A DNA stretch of 64,000 nt from Halarcobacter sp. (GCA_048571215.1 CP182352.1:1888001-1952000); one strand, 5' to 3'. Positions 4,121 to 53,144 are shown, counted from the stretch's first letter. Program-made: numbers and translations. The notes: generated by a model not told the origin, from the sequence alone.

Positions 4121-5335
4121 TTATCCTAAATTCATAGAAAATATAGGTAATAACATAGCAACAACAATAAAACCAATAATTGAACCAACAATCAACATAA
4201 AAATAGGCTCCATTAGCGATAACAATAGGTTTATTTTGTCCCTATTTGATTCATTGTAAAGTTTTGCTAGATTGTTTAATATCTCACTTAATCTACTTGT
4301 ATCTTCCCCAATTGCAATTGAATGAATAAAAGACTCATCTAGTTTATAAATTTTGTTTTGAAGTAATAAACTTGAAAGTTTTTTTCCCTCAACAACACTT
4401 TGTGAAGCATCCATAAAAACTTTTCTTATAACTGTGTTTTTTAAAATATTTGCACTTAAGTTTATAGCTTGAACTATAGGTACTCCCGATTTTATCAATA
4501 TTGAGTTCATATAAGAAAACCTTGATAATTCACTGTGCTCTATTAGTTTAGAGAAAAATGGAATTTTCAATAAAAACTTATCAAAAGCATATTTAAACTT
4601 AACACTTTTTTGTAAAGAAAAAACAAAAATAAATATAGCAGAGATTAAACCTGCAATCACAAACTGATAGTTGTTTGAAAAGAAATCTCCCAAGGCTATT
4701 ACTATTTTTGTACTTTGGGGTAACTCTTGGTCAAACTGGGTAAAGATAGAAGTGATTTTAGGAACAATAAAACTCAACATAAATCCAACCATAAAAAATG
4801 AAACAAAAAGTATAAATAGTGGGTATGCCATAGCAGAAGCAACTTGTTTTTTGATTCTATCTTGCTCTTTTAAAAAGATAGATAACTCCATCAATACAGA
4901 TTCTAACAAACCACCATTTTCACTAACCTTTATAGATTGTTTATAGAAACTTGGCAGGGCTAAAACTTTTTGAGACTCCAAAGCATCATAAAACCTTTTT
5001 CCCTCATCTAAGTACCCCTTTACAGTCTCAAAAAAAGTAAAAAGGGTTTTATTGTTTTTGTATCTTTGTTTTAGTAAATTTATAGAACTTATAAGTGTAA
5101 TTCCTGAGTTTAAATATATACTTAAATCTCTACTTATATATGAAAGGGTTGAGAGATCAAGTTTTTTTCTTCTTTTGAAACTTACTTTTCCAAAATCGAT
5201 AGAATCTTCTTTTAAACTAGTGTATAAAATCCCTTTGGCTTTTAATTTAAGCTTTGCATCTTCTACACTACTTGCTTCGATTTTTGATTTTATTTTTAGA
5301 CCACTTTTATCTAAACCACTATACTTATAAAGCAT
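4121..5335 (-). CDS. gspF: T2SS inner-membrane platform protein GspF
   Basis: GspF/PilC motifs LNSGITL, SENGGLL, AMAYP, LLSLMEP; 404 aa. Confidence 0.92.
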   Translation of the reverse strand: MLYKYSGLDKSGLKIKSKIEASSVEDAKLKLKAKGILYTSLKEDSIDFGKVSFKRRKKLDLSTLSYISRDLSIYLNSGITLISSINLLKQRYKNNKTLFTFFETVKGYLDEGKRFYDALESQKVLALPSFYKQSIKVSENGGLLESVLMELSIFLKEQDRIKKQVASAMAYPLFILFVSFFMVGFMLSFIVPKITSIFTQFDQELPQSTKIVIALGDFFSNNYQFVIAGLISAIFIFVFSLQKSVKFKYAFDKFLLKIPFFSKLIEHSELSRFSYMNSILIKSGVPIVQAINLSANILKNTVIRKVFMDASQSVVEGKKLSSLLLQNKIYKLDESFIHSIAIGEDTSRLSEILNNLAKLYNESNRDKINLLLSLMEPIFMLIVGSIIGFIVVAMLLPIFSMNLG

Positions 5336-6315: not shown

Positions 6316-6576
6316 TCACTCTGTATTTTCACTATCTGCTGAATTTTTAAATTTTTCTATTCTTTCTAAAAACTCATCTGACATCTCTTTTGATTTCAAT
6401 AAAAATTCCCTTGAAAAAGAGCATTTTTTTGTATCTGTTTCACTCTCTTTTTGGCACTGTAAAACCTTTTGATTTTCACTGCCATTTTTTTTTAAATTTG
6501 GCAAAATAAATGAAACAATCAAAATCAAAAAAATAATTAAAACCAACCACTCTCTAGTTGAATATGCTTTTTTCAA
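6316..6576 (-). CDS. Small divergent pseudopilin-like protein
   Basis: N-terminus aligns with GspG (KKAYSTREW..ILPNL vs KKAFSLMEL..VLPNL); has a Cys pair. Confidence 0.55.
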   Translation of the reverse strand: MKKAYSTREWLVLIIFLILIVSFILPNLKKNGSENQKVLQCQKESETDTKKCSFSREFLLKSKEMSDEFLERIEKFKNSADSENTE

Positions 6577-44956: not shown

Positions 44957-45973
44957 TTACTCTATTAAAGATGCTGGTATTTTGACACCTTGCTCTCTAT
45001 AATATTTTGCTGCACCTTTATGTAAAGGCATTGGTAAACCATCTATCGCTTTTTGTAGAGACATAGCAAGTGTTGCTTTATGTACACTATTTAAAAATGG
45101 TAGATTTTCATAAATTGTTTTTGTTAAAAGATAAACTGTTTCTTCAGGAGTATCTTTTGTAACAACCAATAGATTTGGTTGAGCTATTGTATGGATATCT
45201 TTCGTTTGTCCAGGATAAGTTCCAGCTTTTATAGTAAATGGTGTCCAAACAGGATAATTTGCATCAATTTTTTCTAAATCTTCTTTAGAAAAATCCAATA
45301 CTCTTATGTTATCATTTCCAATTGAAGCAAAAGCATTTGTAACTGCTGATGTTGGAGGTCCTGATGGAGTTGTCATACCTTGTACTTTTCCATCTTGAAG
45401 TGCAGTTGAACTTGGACTATAACCTAAGTATTGTAAATCCATTTTATTGAAATCAATCCCAAGTGAGCTTAAAATAGTTTCAGATGAAACTCTTGAACCA
45501 GAACTTCTTCCACCTATAGAAAATCTTTCCCCATAAAGATTTTTCATATCTTTAATATTTCCTGTTTTTGCATATTTACTTTTTATAGTAAATTGTTCAA
45601 CATTTTGCCATAGCATTGTGATTGATCTAAGATTTTTTTGAGGATTGCCAGCATACTTATCTTTTCCTTGCCAAGCCATAGAACCAAATAAACCTTGTAA
45701 AATACCAAAGTTTACTTCCCCTTTCCCTAACATATCAACGTTTTCATTACTTCCTGCACTTGTGATTGCAGAAAATGTAATTTTATGTTTTTTTGCTAAT
45801 TTTATAGAAGCAATTGTTGCAATACCAACACCAACTGGATAATAAGTTCCCCCTGTACTAGCAGTTGCTATTACATACTTAGTCTCATTTGATGCAGCAT
45901 TTGCACCAGTTAGCATCGCTGCAGTTATTACTGAAGTTGCTAATAGTTTTTTAAAAATTGAAACATTTAACAT
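44957..45973 (-). CDS. TAXI-family TRAP solute-binding protein
   Basis: IATASTGGTYYPVG; SAGSNENV; PLHKGAAKYYRE; AAGGAG RBS before MLNVS. Confidence 0.92.
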   Translation of the reverse strand: MLNVSIFKKLLATSVITAAMLTGANAASNETKYVIATASTGGTYYPVGVGIATIASIKLAKKHKITFSAITSAGSNENVDMLGKGEVNFGILQGLFGSMAWQGKDKYAGNPQKNLRSITMLWQNVEQFTIKSKYAKTGNIKDMKNLYGERFSIGGRSSGSRVSSETILSSLGIDFNKMDLQYLGYSPSSTALQDGKVQGMTTPSGPPTSAVTNAFASIGNDNIRVLDFSKEDLEKIDANYPVWTPFTIKAGTYPGQTKDIHTIAQPNLLVVTKDTPEETVYLLTKTIYENLPFLNSVHKATLAMSLQKAIDGLPMPLHKGAAKYYREQGVKIPASLIE

Positions 45974-46012
45974 GTTACTCTCCTTTTTTTTTATGTAAAA
46001 GAAGTATAACAC

Positions 46013-46038
46013 ATTTTGAAACAAAATTGTTTCAAAAT
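46013..46038. promoter_or_regulatory. 12-bp inverted repeat upstream of the TAXI operon
   Basis: ATTTTGAAACAA-aa-TTGTTTCAAAAT. Confidence 0.5.
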
Positions 46039-46284
46039 TGTTTTAAATTTCAAAATTTATTTATAAAGTACGATTTTTAGGGATATTAATTTTTATAAAT
46101 TATATTACCTAGGCTCAAATTTGAAACAATTATCCCTTTATCTTTTATTTTTATCAAAGTTTCTAGTAGTATTTAATAAATCTACTCTATACTTACTTCG
46201 AGAAAAAAATTAAATAAAATACCAATTTAATCTTTAGTGTAATTTTAATTAATAGTTAATTTGTAGTTCTTTATTTAAATCTTT

Positions 46285-47147
46285 CTATTCTATATATTTA
46301 TTTCGTATTAGCAATGTCTTAAAAAGTATTAAACACATAATGACTAATAAAACTGCACTATATAAATATGTAGGTTCAAATAAGAATACTATTATCTGCC
46401 ATAAAGTAGCAAAAAAAGATGTAATAATAATCTTAAGAAAAACTCCTTTTAAAATAAAAAAAATCAACAAAATTAAACAAAATAAAAAGGTAACTAGAGC
46501 AAACCATAATAAGTCTTTCATAGGTGAGAATTTATTACTTTGTTCTGAGTGCATTTTAATACCTAATAACATTCGCCGTTCCATAATATAATGAAATGGA
46601 ATAATCAAATGATTTTTAAAACTTGTCCATAAATTTGTGCTTTTATTTTCTTGTGTTCTAACAATCAAGCGAGATTGTTTTTCATTTATACTTTTTACTA
46701 AAAATGTACCCCAATTCTCAAAACAAGGCTTCCTTCTGGTTTTACATATAGTACAGGAAAATTGTAAATACTTAAAGCACTTTCTTTATTTCTTGAGCCA
46801 TGGACAATATTCCCTACTTTTAAATTAGTGTTTTTAGATATATTTATAGTTTGATATTGGACTTTATTTCCTAATTCATGCTCAATAAAATCATAGCTAT
46901 AAAAACCTTGCCTATTAGCACCTAATTGCATAAGTAATTGCCAAACAATATGTTTATTTGCATCAATTTGTATTGCTCTTGTTGATGTGATGTTTAAATT
47001 ATCATTATCACCCACCATTAACATAGATATCTCTTCTTTTGAAGCTCCCCATTGTGTAATTATAGGTTCTATAAAAATAAAATATATTAACACCTGCAAA
47101 ACTAATATAAAAACTAAAACCAACAATTTTTTTATAAACTTGAACAC
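46285..47147 (-). pseudogene. Membrane-associated SRPBCC-like protein split by two frameshifts (ORFs 46698..47147 and 46285..46668)
   Basis: WGA..EE..GD..TRAI.I.A..VWQLLMQLG..RQGFYSY. The missing linker ENWGTFLVKSINE lies in a third frame and then joins SRLIVRTQ. Confidence 0.7.
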
Positions 47148-47164
47148 TATTTAAATCTTTGTTT

Positions 47165-47704
47165 TTATTTACTAGAAAGTACTAAATTTAATAAGAAATC
47201 ATCAAGTTCTTTATTTCTAGTACTTGATAATCTTGGTTGAATAAATAAAGTACCAAGAAATTTACAATAAATTAACAAAGTCATTTCTTCTCTTGTCTTT
47301 TCATCGGAACTAGGATTAAGTTTATCTTGAATATTTCGTAGTATTAAAATTCGTTCTTTATCAATCTTTTCCATATATGGTAAAACAAGTTCATTTCTAA
47401 GACCCCAGGCTCTAAATTCGATTTCGATATTTAAGTCTTTTGAATATATGGTATTATTTAGTAACTCTATTTGTTTTAAAGGATTATTTTCAAATTGTTT
47501 ACTTTTCTCAATAATATCCATTGTAAAAGTTTTGTACCAATACTCTAAAATCTCTTTAATAAATATTTTGTGGCTTTTAAAATGATGATAAAAAGAGCCT
47601 TTGGTAACTTTTAATTTTTTACAGAGTAAATCGATTTTTAATATATCAACACCATGTTTTGAAACTAATTTCAAAGATGAATCCATCCAATCTTCTTTTG
47701 TCAT
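47165..47704 (-). CDS. TetR/AcrR-family regulator
   Basis: HTH LCKKLKVTKGSFYHHF; AAAGGA RBS before MTKEDW. Confidence 0.92.
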   Translation of the reverse strand: MTKEDWMDSSLKLVSKHGVDILKIDLLCKKLKVTKGSFYHHFKSHKIFIKEILEYWYKTFTMDIIEKSKQFENNPLKQIELLNNTIYSKDLNIEIEFRAWGLRNELVLPYMEKIDKERILILRNIQDKLNPSSDEKTREEMTLLIYCKFLGTLFIQPRLSSTRNKELDDFLLNLVLSSK

Positions 47705-47720
47705 AATATTCCTTTTTGAT

Positions 47721-47750
47721 ATCATACCATACAGTATGGTATTGTGTCAA
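47721..47750 (-). promoter_or_regulatory. sigma70 promoter with overlapping palindromic operator (probable TetR autoregulation)
   Basis: TTGACA (47750-47745), 18-bp spacer, TATGAT (47726-47721); perfect ATACCATAC-A-GTATGGTAT at 47724-47742. Confidence 0.8.
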
Positions 47751-47848
47751 GAGAATATAAAATACTTATTCTATTGAATGTATGATTTCAATTTACAATT
47801 AATTGGTATCCTATCCACGGATTTTTGTAGAGTATTTTCTTTATTGTT

Positions 47849-47917
47849 AGGTAACGTTTAAAATGAGCTGATGAATTGCCCGCAGAGTAATTTATTGGCT
47901 CCTCTGTTTAGTTAGAA
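47849..47917 (-). repeat. attC site A (69 bp)
   Basis: Minus strand TTCTAAC TAAAC AGAGGAGC...GCTCATTT TAAAC GTTACCT. Confidence 0.88.
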
Positions 47918-48198
47918 GATACCGTACCATGTTGCTCCAATAAATAAAATAAATACCTGTATCAATGCAAGTAAACTTGATAAAGTAACTCCTAACCAAA
48001 TAACAATATTCTTACCGTATTTTTTGATATGAAAGTTTCCATAGATTATACTTAATGTTAAAAATATAATAACAATCAATGCCATCAATATAAAATTGAC
48101 TTGAATATTATCAATCCACTCACTTTTCCAATTAAAGAATATCACTCCGCTTAGAAAAGCCATTGTAAAAGGTATAAATTCTGAAATTTTTTTTCCAT
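47912..48198 (-). pseudogene. Cassette: near-identical copy of 48656..48946 with a 4-bp 5' deletion
   Basis: ATGG-A8-TTTCAG vs ATGG-AAAAACGAAAAA-TTTCAG; the remaining ORF is 47912..48163. Confidence 0.8.
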
Positions 48199-48204
48199 TT
48201 TCTC

Positions 48205-48273
48205 TTCTAACGTTTAAAGTGAGCCGATGAATTACCCGCAGAATAATTTATTAGCTCCTCAAATTTGTTATGT
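48205..48273 (-). repeat. attC site B (69 bp)
   Basis: ACATAAC AAATT TGAGGAGC...GCTCACTT TAAAC GTTAGAA. Confidence 0.9.
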
Positions 48274-48576
48274 ACCTGTTCCTAAGCCAAGTACACCAAT
48301 AAACGACCAAAACAGTATTCCAGCCACTGCTAAAATCTGACCATGCAATTTTTGATGATTACGAAATCCATAAATCATAGCCCCAAAGGAGAGCAGGAGA
48401 CCAAGAATCATTCCAAGTTTCGTAAACAATGGAAATGTGTAAAGCAATCCCATTGGTACACCAACTGTAGCTCCAAGAATAAACATGAAGCCAAGCCATA
48501 TATTTTCTTTAAAAACAAAAGAAACAATGCTCAATATGAGAAAGATGCTGACTAATGCAATAATTATTCTTTTGAT
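48268..48576 (-). CDS. Cassette: small multi-TM membrane protein (RBS points to an ATC codon at 48576)
   Basis: Track ORF 48268..48534 extends 14 codons in frame to AGGAG-N5-ATC; its stop lies in the R'' box. Confidence 0.65.
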   Translation of the reverse strand: MKRIIIALVSIFLILSIVSFVFKENIWLGFMFILGATVGVPMGLLYTFPLFTKLGMILGLLLSFGAMIYGFRNHQKLHGQILAVAGILFWSFIGVLGLGTGT

Positions 48577-48591
48577 GAATACTCCTGTGGT

Positions 48592-48661
48592 ACATAACGT
48601 TTTTCGTGAGCAATAATTTTCCCGCTAGGGTAAATTATTGGTCTCCTCGTATTTGTTAGAA
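48592..48661 (-). repeat. attC site C (70 bp)
   Basis: TTCTAAC AAATA CGAGGAGA CCAATAATTTACCC..GGGAAAATTATTG CTCACG AAAAAC GTTATGT. Confidence 0.9.
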
Positions 48662-48946
48662 GATGCCATTCCATGTTGCTCCAATAAATAAAATAAACAC
48701 CTGTATCAATGCAAGTAAACTTGATAACGTAACTCCTAACCAAATAACAATATTCTTACCATATTTTTTGATATGAAAGTTTCCATAGATTATACTTAAT
48801 GTTAAAAATATAATAACAATCAATGCCATCAACATAAAATTGACTTGAATATTATCAATCCACTCACTTTTCCAATTAAAGAATATCACTCCGCTTAGAA
48901 AAGCCATTGTCAAAGGTATGAATTCTGAAATTTTTCGTTTTTCCAT
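48656..48946 (-). CDS. Cassette: 96-aa three-TM hypothetical protein
   Basis: ATG lies just after GTTAGAA; stop TAA lies inside TTCTAAC. Confidence 0.8.
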   Translation of the reverse strand: MEKRKISEFIPLTMAFLSGVIFFNWKSEWIDNIQVNFMLMALIVIIFLTLSIIYGNFHIKKYGKNIVIWLGVTLSSLLALIQVFILFIGATWNGIF

Positions 48947-48952
48947 TTTCTC

Positions 48953-49618
48953 TTCTAACGTTTAAGTTGAGAAATAAGTTGCCCGTAGGGTAACTTATTT
49001 CCCTCCAATGAGACTGTGAAAGAACTCAGTCTCAATTTATATAAATATTCTACATAAAAACACCTAAAAATAATCATCCTAAAAATACTAAAATGTTATA
49101 ATATATTATATTTTAAAGGTGATTTATGGGTATATATAAACAAGGATTAGATAGAAATCAACAGTTACTTTTTCCACCAAGTTTGGATGAATTAATAGAT
49201 GAGAATAATATAACAAGAGCAATTGATTCTTATGTTGAGATATTAAATATTCATAAGCTAAATATAAAAACTAAAAAATCATTAATAAAAGATGGTCAAC
49301 CTGCATTTCATCCAAAACTACTATTAAAAATATATATTTATGGATATTTAATCTTGTGAAGCGAAGCGGTGCTTTAGCATCACTCTCTTTGAGAAAAAGT
49401 TATGTATAGCAATAAAAAATAAAGATTTAACTCAAATTACAAAAGATATAGAGGAATATATCTTAGTATTTGGACTTTATTTGGTTTATTTTTTACAAAA
49501 ATTTTTATATCTAAAAAATTTAAGAAAAAATGTCAGATATTCTGGAAGTTAATTTGGATTTTTACTGTAAATTTAGTTTATTTGGGACTAAATTCACAGT
49601 CTAAATGATTTGTTAGAG
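48953..49618 (-). repeat. attC site D, split by an IS (reconstructs to 69 bp: 48953-49010 plus 49608-49618)
   Basis: The rejoined site CTCTAAC AAATC ATTGGAGG GAAATAAGTT..AACTTATTTC TCAACT TAAAC GTTAGAA closely parallels attC F. Confidence 0.88.
49010..49603 (+). mobile_element. Internally deleted IS1182-family element inserted in attC D
   Basis: IR AGACTGTGAA (49011-49020) / TTCACAGTCT (49593-49602); AAT(G) duplicated on both sides; transposase N-terminus ..DRNQQLLFPPSLDELI..GQPAFHPKLLLKIYIYGY (49126..49359); probable C-terminal remnant 49406-49552. Confidence 0.85.
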
Positions 49619-49635
49619 GATTTTAGCTAGTACAA

Positions 49636-50106
49636 TTAATAATCAATGAAATCTGGAAAAGCAAATTGACTAATTTTCCACTCATTATTCTCTTGTTCAA
49701 GAAATATTTTAAAATAATTTCTTTGACGATTGTCAATCTTTGCTTTCATTTTCCCATAAGCAACAATGTTACCTTTATTAATGTTAGAAATATTTTCTGG
49801 ATAAAAAGCACAACTATAAATCTCAATTCCTTCGTAAAATTTGCTAAATTCATTTTTATATAATTCAAGGTGTGGTAATAATATTTCTTTAACAAAAGGC
49901 TTTTTTAGTGTAACAAGTTGTTTCAGTGATTTTATATCATTTTTTCTTATTGCAATTTCGAATTTTGTTACGATAATTTGCGTATTTTTTGTTGGTATTT
50001 TAACAAAATAGAAATATCCAAGGATCAAAAGTAAAGTAGAAAGAAAAATAAAAATTGCAGATACTTTTAATACCAGTTTTTTAATTGTACTTTCTTTTGA
50101 GTTCAT
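49636..50106 (-). CDS. Cassette: single-TM protein, possibly NTF2-like fold
   Basis: True start is probably MNSKES, just after GTTAGAG (the track's first 24 aa read through attC E); ends LEQENNEWKI. Confidence 0.75.
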   Translation of the reverse strand: MNSKESTIKKLVLKVSAIFIFLSTLLLILGYFYFVKIPTKNTQIIVTKFEIAIRKNDIKSLKQLVTLKKPFVKEILLPHLELYKNEFSKFYEGIEIYSCAFYPENISNINKGNIVAYGKMKAKIDNRQRNYFKIFLEQENNEWKISQFAFPDFIDY

Positions 50107-50114
50107 TTTTCTGC

Positions 50115-50186
50115 CTCTAACGTTTGTCATCACTGGTTTATGTGAAGCGCAGCGGAACACAAATCCAGTGCATGACATTGTTATGA
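50115..50186 (-). repeat. attC site E (72 bp, different sequence family)
   Basis: TCATAAC AATGT CATGCACTGGATTTGTGTTCCGCTGCGCTTCACATAAACCAGTGATG ACAAAC GTTAGAG. Confidence 0.9.
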
Positions 50187-50549
50187 ATCCTTTTTATGTT
50201 CAACGTATTCAACTATAGATCCATCTGGATGTTGTATTCGCATATTCTTACCTGTTGGAACTTTTTTAGGTTTTTCTAAAATGGGTATTCCATTGTCTAA
50301 AAAATAATTATGAAAATCATCTAATGAATCAACAAGGAAAGTTGTTTTTGTTGATTTAAATTTTTCCAAATCTTTTTCTTCACCAGCTAATAACAGGATA
50401 GAAGAAATCTGGACTAATTCTATATTCATTTCTTTGTATATAAATCTAAGAGAACAAGTTTTCTTAAAAATATTTTCATAGAATTTGATTGTTTTCTCTA
50501 ATTTTGAAGGATGCAAAAATATTCTTGTAAGTATTTCTTTGATTTGCAT
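50181..50549 (-). CDS. Cassette: VOC/glyoxalase-family protein
   Basis: FYENIF; FLVDSLDD; PKKVPTGKNMRIQHPDGSIVEYVEH. Confidence 0.85.
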   Translation of the reverse strand: MQIKEILTRIFLHPSKLEKTIKFYENIFKKTCSLRFIYKEMNIELVQISSILLLAGEEKDLEKFKSTKTTFLVDSLDDFHNYFLDNGIPILEKPKKVPTGKNMRIQHPDGSIVEYVEHKKDS

Positions 50550-50559
50550 TTATTTCTCC

Positions 50560-50594
50560 TCATAACTATTTATTCAACGAACATTATATATAAA
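50560..50594 (-). other. Candidate attI-like entry site 2 with TATAAT
   Basis: TTTATATATAATGTTCGTTGAATAAATA-GTTATGA; core complements this cassette's TCATAAC; no attC palindrome. Confidence 0.65.
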
Positions 50595-50827
50595 ATAGTC
50601 TGATATTATCAAATAAACAGACATAAAAAATATTTGTTTATTTGATAAAAATATTTCAAAATGCAATAATTTGATTCTTTTTTTACCAAAAGCATCAAAA
50701 TCTTTAAAATATAGATGAGCATTTAAAAATATTTTTGGCGTTATTTGAACAAAATGTCAGTTAATCGTAGGAAAAAAGTGTTAAATGTACATTATGCGGT
50801 TTATTTTCAAACCTTACATGTAAAAGT

Positions 50828-50989
50828 TTAGAGTTTATAGTTTCTTTCCCAACCAGAACGTCCAATTATAAAAGCTGTTGCTAAAGATGCATACTCTTCT
50901 TTAGATAACGAGTTGATATAATTTTTTATCTCATTTGATGACACTTGGAATTTTTGTATATTTTTAAAAATATTTTCTATTGGTTTCAT
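50828..50989 (-). CDS. 53-aa ORF or gene fragment (MKPIENIF...ATAFIIGRSGWERNYKL)
   Basis: Hand translation; ATGA overlap with the upstream stop; faint resemblance to DUF3775-type L..L..EE...L.A..IGR. Confidence 0.4.
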   Translation of the reverse strand: MKPIENIFKNIQKFQVSSNEIKNYINSLSKEEYASLATAFIIGRSGWERNYKL

Positions 50990-51534
50990 TTTTTTTCATT
51001 GTTATGTTTTGGCTTTGACGCTTCAAGGTAAAGTATTTGCTGAAACATCGTGTGAAACAAATGGCGCACCTCCGTTACAAAAAGTTTTGACAGCTTATCT
51101 TTCGATTTATGCGCTTTCCATATTTTATTGAAATTTTCAATAACGAGGCGTTGCTGCTCTACTGAAACCGAGTTTAGCGGCCTACTTTCTTGGCGCAAAA
51201 GAAGATTTTTTAACTCAACATCTATTACTCGATATTTTTCTGCATAGCAAAAATATGGAGTTTCGTATGATTCAACAAGAGAACTACATAAATCATCTAT
51301 TTTTTTAGCTACGCTTAACGTCTGCTCCTGTGTTTTTGTATCGAAAGCTGAAATAGTAGCTTCAGGTGTTGGTAATGCCTTCGCTAACGTTGATACAGAA
51401 TCAATAAATTTTGATACTGATATCACAATAATCCCAACGACAACCACAAAACCGACAGCCTTCAAGCTGAGTAGCTTGCCTAATATTTCCTTATGCGCTA
51501 CGACTGAGCCTTCATTTTTTACGTCATCTGACAT
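50986..51534 (-). CDS. Cassette: single-TM hypothetical protein, visibly more GC-rich than host
   Basis: AAGGA RBS before MSDDVK, after GTTATGT; matching ACATAAC at 51007-51001, but the rest of the attC is missing. Confidence 0.75.
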   Translation of the reverse strand: MSDDVKNEGSVVAHKEILGKLLSLKAVGFVVVVGIIVISVSKFIDSVSTLAKALPTPEATISAFDTKTQEQTLSVAKKIDDLCSSLVESYETPYFCYAEKYRVIDVELKNLLLRQESRPLNSVSVEQQRLVIENFNKIWKAHKSKDKLSKLFVTEVRHLFHTMFQQILYLEASKPKHNNEKK

Positions 51535-51549
51535 TGCGGATCCTTGTAA

Positions 51550-51618
51550 ACATAACGTTTGAGTTGAGAAATATTTGAGCCGCAGGGTCAAATATTTCTT
51601 TCCAATGATTTGTTATAT
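51550..51618 (-). repeat. attC site F (69 bp)
   Basis: ATATAAC AAATC ATTGGAAAGAAATATTTGACCCTGCGGCTCAAATATTTCTCAACT CAAAC GTTATGT. Confidence 0.9.
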
Positions 51619-52100
51619 ATTTTTGATTGCATTATAACAATACTTCTTGATAGGAAGATACCACTTAGTGAACCATATAAAAAACTAATAGCAATAATAA
51701 ACCCTAACTCATGTATAATAGATAATTCCCTTGCAAGTGCAACTCCAACAAAATATTTAATAAAGAATATAACTAGTATAAGAACCATAGGCATCCAACT
51801 ACCTGGAATATAAAAAACATCTTCAGATTCATTATATTTAATATTTTTAGGAAACGACAATTTTAATCCTATAAGTAAAAATATAAATCCGCCAATAAAC
51901 CATAGTCCTACTGGTGTTATCATTGTTCCAAAAGCAGAAAAAACACCAAATAATGATAGTAGGATCATAGCAATAGGTAAAGTAAATATTCTTTTTAATT
52001 TTACTTCTCTATCTTTTGTTTGTGTATATCCTAAAAAAACCAAACCTATAAACAATATAAAAACCCATATGGGTGTATGCTGAATTATTTCAAGAATCAA
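51588..52100 (-). CDS. Cassette: membrane protein, DUF6622-like
   Basis: HTPIWVFILF..LG..Q..DR; IPGSWMPMVLIL.IF..KY; ORF ends inside attC F. Confidence 0.75.
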   Translation of the reverse strand: MILEIIQHTPIWVFILFIGLVFLGYTQTKDREVKLKRIFTLPIAMILLSLFGVFSAFGTMITPVGLWFIGGFIFLLIGLKLSFPKNIKYNESEDVFYIPGSWMPMVLILVIFFIKYFVGVALARELSIIHELGFIIAISFLYGSLSGIFLSRSIVIMQSKIYNKSLERNI

Positions 52101-52115
52101 TCTTATTCCTTTTAT

Positions 52116-52150
52116 ATATAACTATTTATTAAACACACATTATATATATA
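52116..52150 (-). other. Candidate attI-like entry site 1 with TATAAT
   Basis: TATATATATAATGTGTGTTTAATAAATA-GTTATAT; core complements ATATAAC of attC F. Confidence 0.65.
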
Positions 52151-52433
52151 ATAACCTAAAAATCAATAAATATCATACAATATAAATGTCGTATATTAAA
52201 ATAAATACAAAGCCTTTAAATAAAGTGTTCATCAGTATTTTACTCTAAAAAATACTGCAATACATAATATTTTTTAAATATATTTTAACTTTCTAATATA
52301 GTTTTTATGTACGTTTTATATCGATATTTAGATGATAATAGTACATTTTGTATGTATATTAAGATAATATCGTAATAACATACATTATGTTATATTTATT
52401 AAGAAGTCAATTATTAATCCAATTTATAACTAA

Positions 52434-53144
52434 TTAGCCTCTTTCTATCAAATACCCCAAACCTTTTTTTGAAACAATAAAATCGTCATCAGATATCTTA
52501 TCTTTAACCCTTTTTATAACTGTACGCATAGTTGCATCGGAAGTATTGATATCATTCCAGATGAACTCTTTTAGATACTCTTTTGTTTTTATCTCTTTTA
52601 TATTTTTAACTAAAGCTTCTAAAAGTAGTTTCTCTTTTTTTGATAAGTTTACTAACTCATCATTTCTATATAGAAGATTTGTTTTTCTATTGTATTGATA
52701 TGTGCTATTTAAATCTATGACTTCTTCCTCAGGGCTTGCATTTGATTTCTCTTCTAGAACTTTTGATTTTACTTTTTTTAACATCTCCATCATATTTTTT
52801 ACTTCCAAAGGTTTTACAAAATATGAGATTACATTTAGATTTATCGATTTGAAAAGGTACTCTTCATCTTTATATGCTGATACTATTATAAATTTTTGGT
52901 CTTCATTTATATTTGTAATATGTTCTATCATAGATAATCCATCAAGTTTTGGCATTTGGATATCTGTTAAAACTAAATCAAAAGTTTTATTATCTTGGTA
53001 TGCCTTCTCATAAAGTTCCAAGCCCTCTTTCCCATCACAAGCTATTGATACTTTATCAAAAACCGTATCAAGGTAGAAACTTAATATCTCTCTTGCATCC
53101 TCTTCATCTTCAACTAATAATACTCTTGTAATATATTCATTCAT
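52434..53144 (-). CDS. OmpR-type response regulator
   Basis: LLVEDE; TDIQMPKLDG; KP; winged-helix tail (KGLGY). Confidence 0.93.
   Translation of the reverse strand: MNEYITRVLLVEDEEDAREILSFYLDTVFDKVSIACDGKEGLELYEKAYQDNKTFDLVLTDIQMPKLDGLSMIEHITNINEDQKFIIVSAYKDEEYLFKSINLNVISYFVKPLEVKNMMEMLKKVKSKVLEEKSNASPEEEVIDLNSTYQYNRKTNLLYRNDELVNLSKKEKLLLEALVKNIKEIKTKEYLKEFIWNDINTSDATMRTVIKRVKDKISDDDFIVSKKGLGYLIERG

Follow-up and report, generated by a model that had tools for sequence, protein, structure and literature searches.

Candidate attI-plus-promoter regions without an integrase gene at the head of cassette arrays in a Halarcobacter genome

Introduction

What stands at the head of an integron cassette array that has no integrase gene beside it? 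The question is raised by a stretch of 64,000 nucleotides from Halarcobacter sp. (GCA_048571215.1 CP182352.1:1888001-1952000), called the window below, which belongs to a genome of 3.61 Mb in one contig. A cassette array in the window contains two copies of a motif that abuts a GTT triplet, and an earlier reading of the window (the sequence-only reading) proposed that they are duplicated attI-like entry sites of an integrase-free platform for the capture of cassettes. Integrons are described as typically having one attI close to the integrase, and attI sites as poorly described outside class 1 (PMC9024848). Clusters of attC sites without an integron-integrase are named CALINs (Cury et al. 2016, PMC4889954); the definition given there leaves attI aside, because attI is unknown for most integrons. 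Our analysis indicates that each motif is likely to be the crossover-proximal core of a complete integron attI region that lacks intI, and that a single integrase, IntI, would serve in trans about 23 platforms composed of an attI and a cassette promoter (Pc).

Results

The two motifs of the window

Both copies of the motif are present on the minus strand, as are all window features described below unless a plus strand is given. Core motif copy 2 (52120..52150) reads TATATATATAATGTGTGTTTAATAAATA|GTT, with the crossover GTT at 52122-52120, a -10 hexamer TATAAT at 52144-52139, and a -35-like TTGATT at 52166-52161. Core motif copy 1 (50564..50594) reads TTTATATATAATGTTCGTTGAATAAATA|GTT, with the GTT at 50566-50564, the -10 hexamer at 50588-50583, and a -35-like TTGATA at 50612-50607. 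The 28-mers of the two copies differ at four positions (24/28 identical). The pattern TATAATGTNNGTTKAATAAATAGTT has two matches in the window, compared to 0.01 expected, and none of 100 shuffled sequences reached two or more. The promoter-like elements, TTGATA-18-TATAAT in copy 1 and TTGATT-16-TATAAT in copy 2, agree with the consensus at 11 and 10 of 12 positions, respectively, and are among the best minus-strand matches between 47700 and 52600. After the GTT of each copy come a ribosome-binding site, an open reading frame (ORF), and an attC-like hairpin (51618-51550 for copy 2; 50186-50115 for copy 1). The sequence-only reading had the motifs, their identity, the TATAAT in each of them, and their place at the head of two sub-arrays right.

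Homology to the regions between intI and the first cassette

The motifs form the ends of longer integrase-less attI/Pc regions. The region of copy 2 (52120..52433) corresponds to the full spacer from intI to the crossover (nhmmer E 7.7e-40) and abuts the stop codon of a response-regulator gene. By blastn, 296 bp of it align at 80.7% identity with the spacer beside the genome's own intI, and its identity to an integrase-less copy at genome position 1803470 is 82.4%. The homology to the own spacer continues up to the point at which the absent intI would have its ribosome-binding site, a position now taken by the stop codon of the response regulator. The region of copy 1 (50564..50807) is of a different lineage, and only 69 bp of it could be aligned with the spacer beside the genome's own intI. 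It matches the intI-adjacent spacers L043 from a metagenome-assembled genome of Sulfurospirillum (81.6% over 244 bp), L049 from Sulfurimonas (81.0% over 247 bp), and L046 (80.1% over 246 bp), with all three of which it has an identical 25-mer. The homology of copy 1 ends at the position of the intI start codon, where the window reads ATG TAA.

Both copies are homologous to sites located between intI and the first cassette. Because they align with genuine intI-attI spacers over 245-296 bp, we read them as complete attI-plus-promoter regions without intI. The claim that the 200-300 bp upstream of the motifs do not align holds for one copy compared to the other (34 bp by blastn), but each of them aligns over 245-296 bp with intI-attI spacers. 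Similarly, the units are repeated as had been supposed, but they are spacers of about 250-310 bp and not 28-bp units. The window copies are also not duplicates of each other, as they come from different attI lineages.

The integrase locus and the attI core across Campylobacterota

The sole match to TIGR02249 above the cut-off in the genome is located at 895245-896189 on the minus strand (398 bits, cut-off 265). It belongs to the only intI gene (genome 895245-896198), which forms a complete integron together with attC sites at 895-905 kb. The alignment of the IntI protein with VchIntIA (PDB: 2A3V, E 1.2e-78) covers its full length, the integron-specific insert among it. Profile searches found no further TIGR02249 match in or near the window and no intI fragments elsewhere in the genome. 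The platform of the window is thus integrase-free at its own locus, with no divergent intI in cis, but the genome possesses one intI at a distance of 1.04 Mb. A copy of the motif at genome 896471-896495 (+) is divergent from intI and separated by ~297 bp from its likely start, an ATG after GGAGG; by its placement, this stretch is taken to be in the position of an attI.

The same arrangement recurs in related bacteria. A copy of the attI adjoins intI in all seven genomes of the genus with a full-length intI, this genome included; in six it was identified by the motif at 243-282 bp and in G020 by blastn of the attI region. Outside the genus, 46 Campylobacterota intI loci had enough upstream DNA, with record titles naming Arcobacter, Halarcobacter, Poseidonibacter, Malaciobacter, Sulfurimonas, Sulfurovum, and Sulfurospirillum. 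In 44 of them AATAAATAGTT, with at most one mismatch, ends 176-267 bp upstream of intI; the other two are L040, which has only 145 bp of upstream DNA, and L045. When 43 intI-adjacent loci are aligned at the GTT, they are conserved up to the triplet and unrelated beyond it, with an exact break at G|TT. The next base after the GTT is a purine in 43/43 of these loci (34 A, 9 G), and a -10-like hexamer is positioned at a fixed distance from the GTT. The intI-adjacent and integrase-less copies alike have a conserved left half that meets variable cassette DNA at G|TT followed by a purine. Such conservation ending at the GTT would be the signature of an attI, the right half of which is replaced at each cassette insertion.

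The attI regions contain direct repeats RTGTWYGTT positioned ~41 nt apart, and the motif WATGT peaks 20-24 nt (35/44 regions) and 55-64 nt (24/44) from the crossover. The RTGTWYGTT boxes are putative IntI-binding sites, and the -35 and -10 elements form a candidate promoter in each of the two window copies. A looser pattern, TANAATN8AATAAATAGTT with one mismatch, was uninformative in these AT-rich genomes, where controls were similar in size. A palindrome of the type ATTGCAnnTTGCAAT, located ~110-130 nt from the crossover, is conserved in many intI-attI spacers (L009:4349-4365; window ~52255-52240) and may be an operator for the integrase promoter. The 5-mers TTGCA and TGCAA are enriched about 5-fold over shuffles in these spacers.

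Among the intI loci, L009 contains an ORF-less unit of ~185 bp directly after the true attI and again two cassettes further on (4497-4680 and 6385-6570, +). The unit starts with GTTGTTCGTTCCCGCTTCGCG and includes a 157-nt attC-like palindrome with a duplex dG of -25.8. Similar starts (GTTnnnCGTTCCCGC, GTTATCTCGGACGCT) directly follow the attI in several other Campylobacterota intI loci.

Copies and lineages in the genome

A search with two consensus 25-mers, with up to four mismatches allowed, gave 24 matches in the genome, compared to one for the reversed patterns. Two matches without nhmmer support (3010494 and 3605549) were removed and one supported by blastn and nhmmer (957001) was added, resulting in about 23 attI copies, only one of which is beside intI. 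The GTT is kept in 20 of the 23 copies, and the base that follows the motif is a purine in all 22 copies listed. Of 24 other genomes in the genus, 17 contain the motif, and the control gave no match in them. A covariance model, R1, was built from 14 aligned short attC sites from the window and other loci, in which 7 of 12 RNAalifold pairs have compensatory changes; it represents this short type, as distinct from attC types of 120-160 nt, and has 26 matches in the genome, corresponding to about 24 distinct sites. A short, R1-type attC is located within 4 kb downstream on the same strand of 14 of the 23 copies. Attachment sites resembling attC were accepted by eye after five further copies (896495, 904737, 957001, 1472892, and 1720190), which gives 19 of 23 copies with same-strand attC cassettes downstream; neither R1 nor inspection by eye found an attC after the remaining four. 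The sequence-only reading had looked to the recurrence of the motif here and in related genomes, to its position before attC-terminated ORFs, and to one copy adjoining intI, and all three were found.

The copies fall into at least four lineages when their last 200 nt are compared. Over this length, identity to the lineage of the genome's own intI-adjacent attI is 82-88% for window copy 2 and the copy at 1803470, and window copy 1 is 83% identical to Sulfurospirillum UBA2217. The copies at 963108, 1465067, and 1714428 are 84-85% identical to the intI-adjacent attI of Malaciobacter canalis. For the copy at 1717230, the closest lineage is that of the Arcobacter sp. CECT 8985 and YIC-310 records, with 90% identity to their intI-adjacent attI, compared to 66% for the attI beside the intI of its own genome. 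The lineages are only 60-75% identical overall, and the core is kept better than the rest of the region in the integrase-less copies. At 957-967, 1465-1473, 1711-1720, and 1803-1807 kb of the genome and in the window, successive copies follow each other 1.5-6 kb apart on one strand, and in these five regions an attI/Pc region recurs every few cassettes. The copy at 1803470 retains 13 codons of intI followed by a stop codon.

A copy shortened to ~60 bp is located at genome 904690-904737 (L110:2690-2737, +) inside the array of the true integron, at a distance of 8.2 kb from the attI there. This copy has ATT in place of the GTT, and it may be a promoter-only derivative.

Cassettes and attC sites of the window array

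The window array includes six complete attC sites of ~70 nt between 47848 and 51618 (R1 46-80 bits) and a partial site near 49620. Cassette A starts at the GTT of copy 2 and carries an ORF (51588..52100) encoding a DUF6622 membrane protein (Pfam PF20327, E 4.6e-27) and an attC (51550..51618; R1 79.8 bits, E 1.5e-17) with a hairpin dG of -12.2. Two ORFs of 182 amino acids (no family) and 53 amino acids (weak DUF3775) occupy 50828..51534 between this attC and attI copy 1. No attC of their own was identified, as R1 has no matches between 51549 and 50186; R1 also found no attC in the stretches 51549-50594 and 52433-52120. The ORF of cassette C (50181..50549) starts 15 nt after the GTT of copy 1 and encodes a VOC/glyoxalase-like protein (weak matches to Pfam PF12681/PF00903, E ~1e-3); its attC is located at 50115..50186 (R1 46.2 bits, E 1e-8; duplex dG -15.8). 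In the distal array (47848..49021), three small membrane-protein cassettes are located between four short-type attC sites (49021-48952, 48661-48592, 48273-48204, and 47917-47848; R1 70-78 bits each), the last R' of which reads GTTACCTAAC. The DUF6622, VOC-like, small membrane, and no-family proteins of the array are typical cassette cargo.

With more than two attC sites and no intI nearby, the array corresponds to a CALIN; it is not a complete integron, which would have intI and attC at one locus. The two attI/Pc units are also distinct from promoter-bearing ORF-less cassettes, in which the unit ends in its own attC, as both of them end in the attI core.

Several other features were observed in the arrays. 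The segment 49022-49560 contains the only plus-strand ORF of the window array (49126-49359), which has a weak match to the transposase family DUF772, and is positioned between the partial attC, which lacks a GTT, and the next attC. The segment 48956-49615 is 91% identical to a different array of the genus genome G002 (L133:16715-17374). Near-identical small membrane proteins of 83 and 96 amino acids, encoded at 47912-48163 and 48656-48946, represent a cassette duplication. At two other loci, cassettes right after the attI encode TIR-domain proteins (L009:4697-5440, +, TIR/SEFIR; L013:5014-6411, -, TIR plus Mrr-like nuclease), as would fit the storage of defence genes in these arrays.

Two other approaches to finding attC sites performed poorly. 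The first finder, which required complementarity of R'' and R', overlooked the genuine sites, and its 275 matches across the genome formed a flat background. A duplex-based finder was unspecific, with 44 matches on one window strand, three of which were real (51614, 50182, and 48657), and it was used only together with inspection by eye. Rfam gave no match in the window at the gathering threshold and none at E<=0.1 in L009-L011, L013, and L014. In contigs from four DNA runs of two samples, joints were located between attC repeats or had sides shorter than 31 nt, and were indistinguishable from ambiguity of the assembly graph.

Use of the integrase-less sites

Comparisons of the same cassettes and of the same site in different genomes bear on whether the integrase-less sites have received cassettes. 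DNA 91% identical to cassette A is present in G085 and G161, genomes from two other genera, and the homology begins at the G of the GTT. To the left of this GTT is a short-type attC in G085 and attI copy 2 in the window. At 1472892, an integrase-less attI is followed by a MarC cassette; the G002 copy of this cassette, with 94% identity, is preceded by an attC, and the homology starts within a few bases of the GTT. Both cassettes are therefore attC-bounded elsewhere at the same GTT. The close relative G002, in which the flanks of the site are 98.5% and 92.6% identical to those in the window, has the same integrase-less attI as window copy 2 next to the same regulator gene. The two genomes diverge at the first base after the GTT, where a two-gene unit in G002 replaces 4.3 kb of cassettes. 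The three comparisons suggest that the sites are used. As intI is missing here from both genomes, an exchange at the GTT of copy 2 probably took place at least once after the loss of intI. Searches of 184 genomes of the family for the unit of two ORFs plus attI copy 1 matched only its attC and the attI core, and found no relative of cassette C.

The unit in G002 (L106:10427-12660, +) reads like a type II restriction-modification system, the second gene of which has motifs resembling those of cytosine methyltransferases.

The strongest competing explanation is that the integrase-less regions are fossils, the remnants of once-complete integrons from which intI was deleted, retaining at most internal promoters and receiving no insertions today. 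Loss of intI is an accepted scenario for the origin of CALINs (PMC4889954), and the 13 codons and stop at 1803470, the lone start codon at copy 1, and the copy at 904713 cut to about 60 bp are in line with it. Nevertheless, we consider this explanation unlikely. Decay does not account for two genomes that share attI copy 2 and differ from the first base after its GTT, or for cassettes that begin at a GTT next to which other genomes have an attC. Furthermore, conservation in all lineages is highest in the part of the core downstream of the -10 hexamer, a part dispensable for a promoter, and no fragment of a deleted intI was detected elsewhere in the genome.

Several observations nevertheless weigh against sites that are active in trans, and some of them favour the fossils. 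The GTT is lost in 3 of the 23 copies. At the attI at 963108, this genome (G000) and G002 share 4 kb at 97.9% identity, with no turnover. No attC is recognisable at the far end of the restriction-modification unit of G002 (R1 has no match in L106), and because of this the arrival of the unit may have been independent of IntI. Cassette entry could also predate the loss of intI, or homologous recombination could have exchanged entire segments. Promoter-like sites between 47700 and 52600 are not more numerous than in shuffled sequences (39 compared to 34.2). Finally, recognition of an attI is reported to be restricted to its cognate integrase (PMC2095811), so that sites of foreign lineage such as copy 1 may not be accessible to the single IntI.

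Insertion of the locus and repeat X

Copy 2 abuts the gene of an OmpR-type response regulator (52434..53144; Pfam Response_reg plus Trans_reg_C). In G003, G009, and G014 the orthologue of this regulator is directly beside an NMT1-like gene (window 44957-46024), without an intervening attI or array. Because the two genes adjoin in these genomes, we interpret window 46131-52433 as an insertion carrying both attI regions; homology with G002 resumes at 46132. On either side of the ~6.3 kb segment is a copy of the 3' end of the regulator gene (46085-46130 and 52434-52480). The copy at the far end (46085..46130) is a degenerate version of the last ~45 nt of the gene, with the core ATTGTTTCAAA. The duplication resembles that of the att site of an integrated island. 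Among the window proteins, Pfam identified no recombinase encoded inside the insert.

Many attI copies are accompanied by a non-coding repeat of ~600 bp, here called X, which forms 38 blocks in the genome, often in tandem (e.g. L014:7080-7750, -; L010:5390-6330, -). X is located within 450 bp upstream of 17 of the 23 copies, and is absent from both window copies and the intI-adjacent copy; the window contains only a snippet of ~40 nt near 49385-49345. X was found in 18 of 24 other genomes of the genus, some of which lack the motif, and in none of the 16 genomes searched from other families. Its core has compensatory changes in 11 of 45 predicted pairs among 21 copies, and it has no match in Rfam. 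The possibility that X is a relic of intI was rejected, as no similarity to intI was detected beyond the 13 codons retained in one copy, and local alignments of the end of X to the 5' end of intI scored within the range of shuffles (18-25, null maxima 29-35).

An IS110-family element with a 327-amino-acid DEDD transposase and a non-coding leader of ~260 nt is inserted in X at L011:5510-6810 (+; genome ~1467510-1468810), between GGGATAAT and TTCTTTGC. The copies of X at 2522656 and 2827771 abut the same transposase 3' end, as judged from alignment only.

The proximity of X to most attI copies, its spread among genomes of the genus with and without the motif, and the insertion flanked by a duplicated gene end could indicate that the motif is the end of another mobile element (X, an insertion sequence, or the 6.3 kb island), and the break at the GTT its insertion junction. 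This is very improbable: the same sequence is beside intI in 44 of 46 loci across several families, whereas X was not found in the 16 genomes searched from other families; X is missing from the window copies and the intI-adjacent copy; past the break, the first base is a purine and cassettes bounded by attC follow; and X itself has neither similarity to intI nor an Rfam family. That the motif is an ordinary promoter plus operator of a regulon, unrelated to integron recombination, is hardly credible despite its good -35/-10 match and the enriched upstream palindrome ATTGCA..TGCAAT, as the genes downstream are unrelated accessory genes bounded by attC, and its position relative to intI is fixed across the phylum.

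Discussion

A trans-acting integrase with many attI platforms

The attI region of about 250-310 bp is normally located between intI and the first cassette. It would be composed of a Pc (-35 TTGAT(T/A) and -10 TATAAT ending 19 nt before the crossover), the RTGTWYGTT boxes, and the G|TT crossover. In the window, copy 2 would be a paralogue of the attI beside the genome's own intI, and copy 1 would originate from another Campylobacterota integron lineage. Each region is predicted to promote the transcription of the promoterless cassettes downstream, and to constitute a double-stranded site at which IntI, produced from the gene 1.04 Mb away, could insert circular cassettes by attI x attC recombination. 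The genome would thus have one integrase and about 23 attI/Pc platforms distributed over roughly 10 loci, often every 1-4 cassettes. The observation made in the sequence-only reading is confirmed and its interpretation supported, with recombination and transcription at the sites predicted from sequence.

A broader view is that the genome contains a distributed integron, in which one IntI serves some twenty modular platforms from at least four lineages, which often travel with X and restart transcription every 1-4 cassettes in arrays that would be silent without them. We put this forward tentatively, as a possibility that we hold to be somewhat doubtful. According to this view, the usual attI x attC recombination could bring a circle with an attI into any attC, and the platform would itself be a kind of cassette. 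The layout of the window, in which an attC is followed by two ORFs without an attC of their own and then by attI copy 1, fits a platform that moves as a cassette.

Significance

Integron theory assumes one attI and one promoter per integrase, with only the first few cassettes expressed and a single entry point. With many integrase-less attI/Pc regions, the simultaneous expression of numerous cassettes would become possible, as would capture at many loci. Campylobacterota integrons gain a defined attI, composed of a 25-nt core and a region of ~250 bp, and knowledge of the attI enables attC clusters without an integrase to be classified as 'headed' or 'headless'. The natural swaps of attC and attI provide ready substrates for determining whether one IntI accepts an attI of foreign lineage, and the mixture of lineages makes this a real question because of the reported restriction of attI to its cognate integrase (PMC2095811).

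Comparison with known systems

The individual parts, IntI, attI, Pc, attC, and CALINs, are textbook; what appears to be new is the presence of many integrase-less attI sites together with one integrase. A literature search, the coverage of which did not extend to subscription-only papers, found no report of repeated integrase-less attI sites, in line with the earlier suggestion that the architecture may be undescribed. The sites share with the attI and Pc of chromosomal integrons short repeated boxes upstream of the core, homologues divergent from intI, and, as predicted from sequence, an outward promoter for promoterless cassettes. Well-known examples of an attI with a Pc are attI1 of class 1 integrons and attIA of Vibrio cholerae. 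Also common to both is a double-stranded site, the conserved left part of which meets variable cassette DNA at G|TT. The general scheme of integrons is presented in PMC4889954 and PMC9024848. In contrast to these attI, the sites described here lack intI, number ~23 per genome, come from several lineages, and recur inside arrays.

The window array resembles a CALIN in having at least six attC sites and no intI within 1 Mb. It differs in being headed by an attI/Pc of its own and containing another internally, whereas CALINs are defined by attC only (PMC4889954). The non-att genomic sites used by IntI, named attG (Loot et al., 10.1101/2022.09.11.507474), are similar in enabling cassette insertion away from the integron platform; however, as described there, attG sites are short, unrelated sequences, whereas the sites here are full homologues of attI with a putative promoter. 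ORF-less promoter cassettes are, like the attI/Pc units, non-coding units inside an array, and they can drive downstream cassettes, as is predicted for the units here. They end in an attC, however, in contrast to the attI core at the end of the units here, which have homology to the intI-attI spacer. Defective class 1 integrons with a truncated intI1 keep attI1. They are similar to the regions described here in that the attI is kept after the loss of the integrase and cassettes could be exchanged with IntI from another integron, but they are single sites on mobile elements, in contrast to the ~23 chromosomal sites from several lineages in this Halarcobacter genome.

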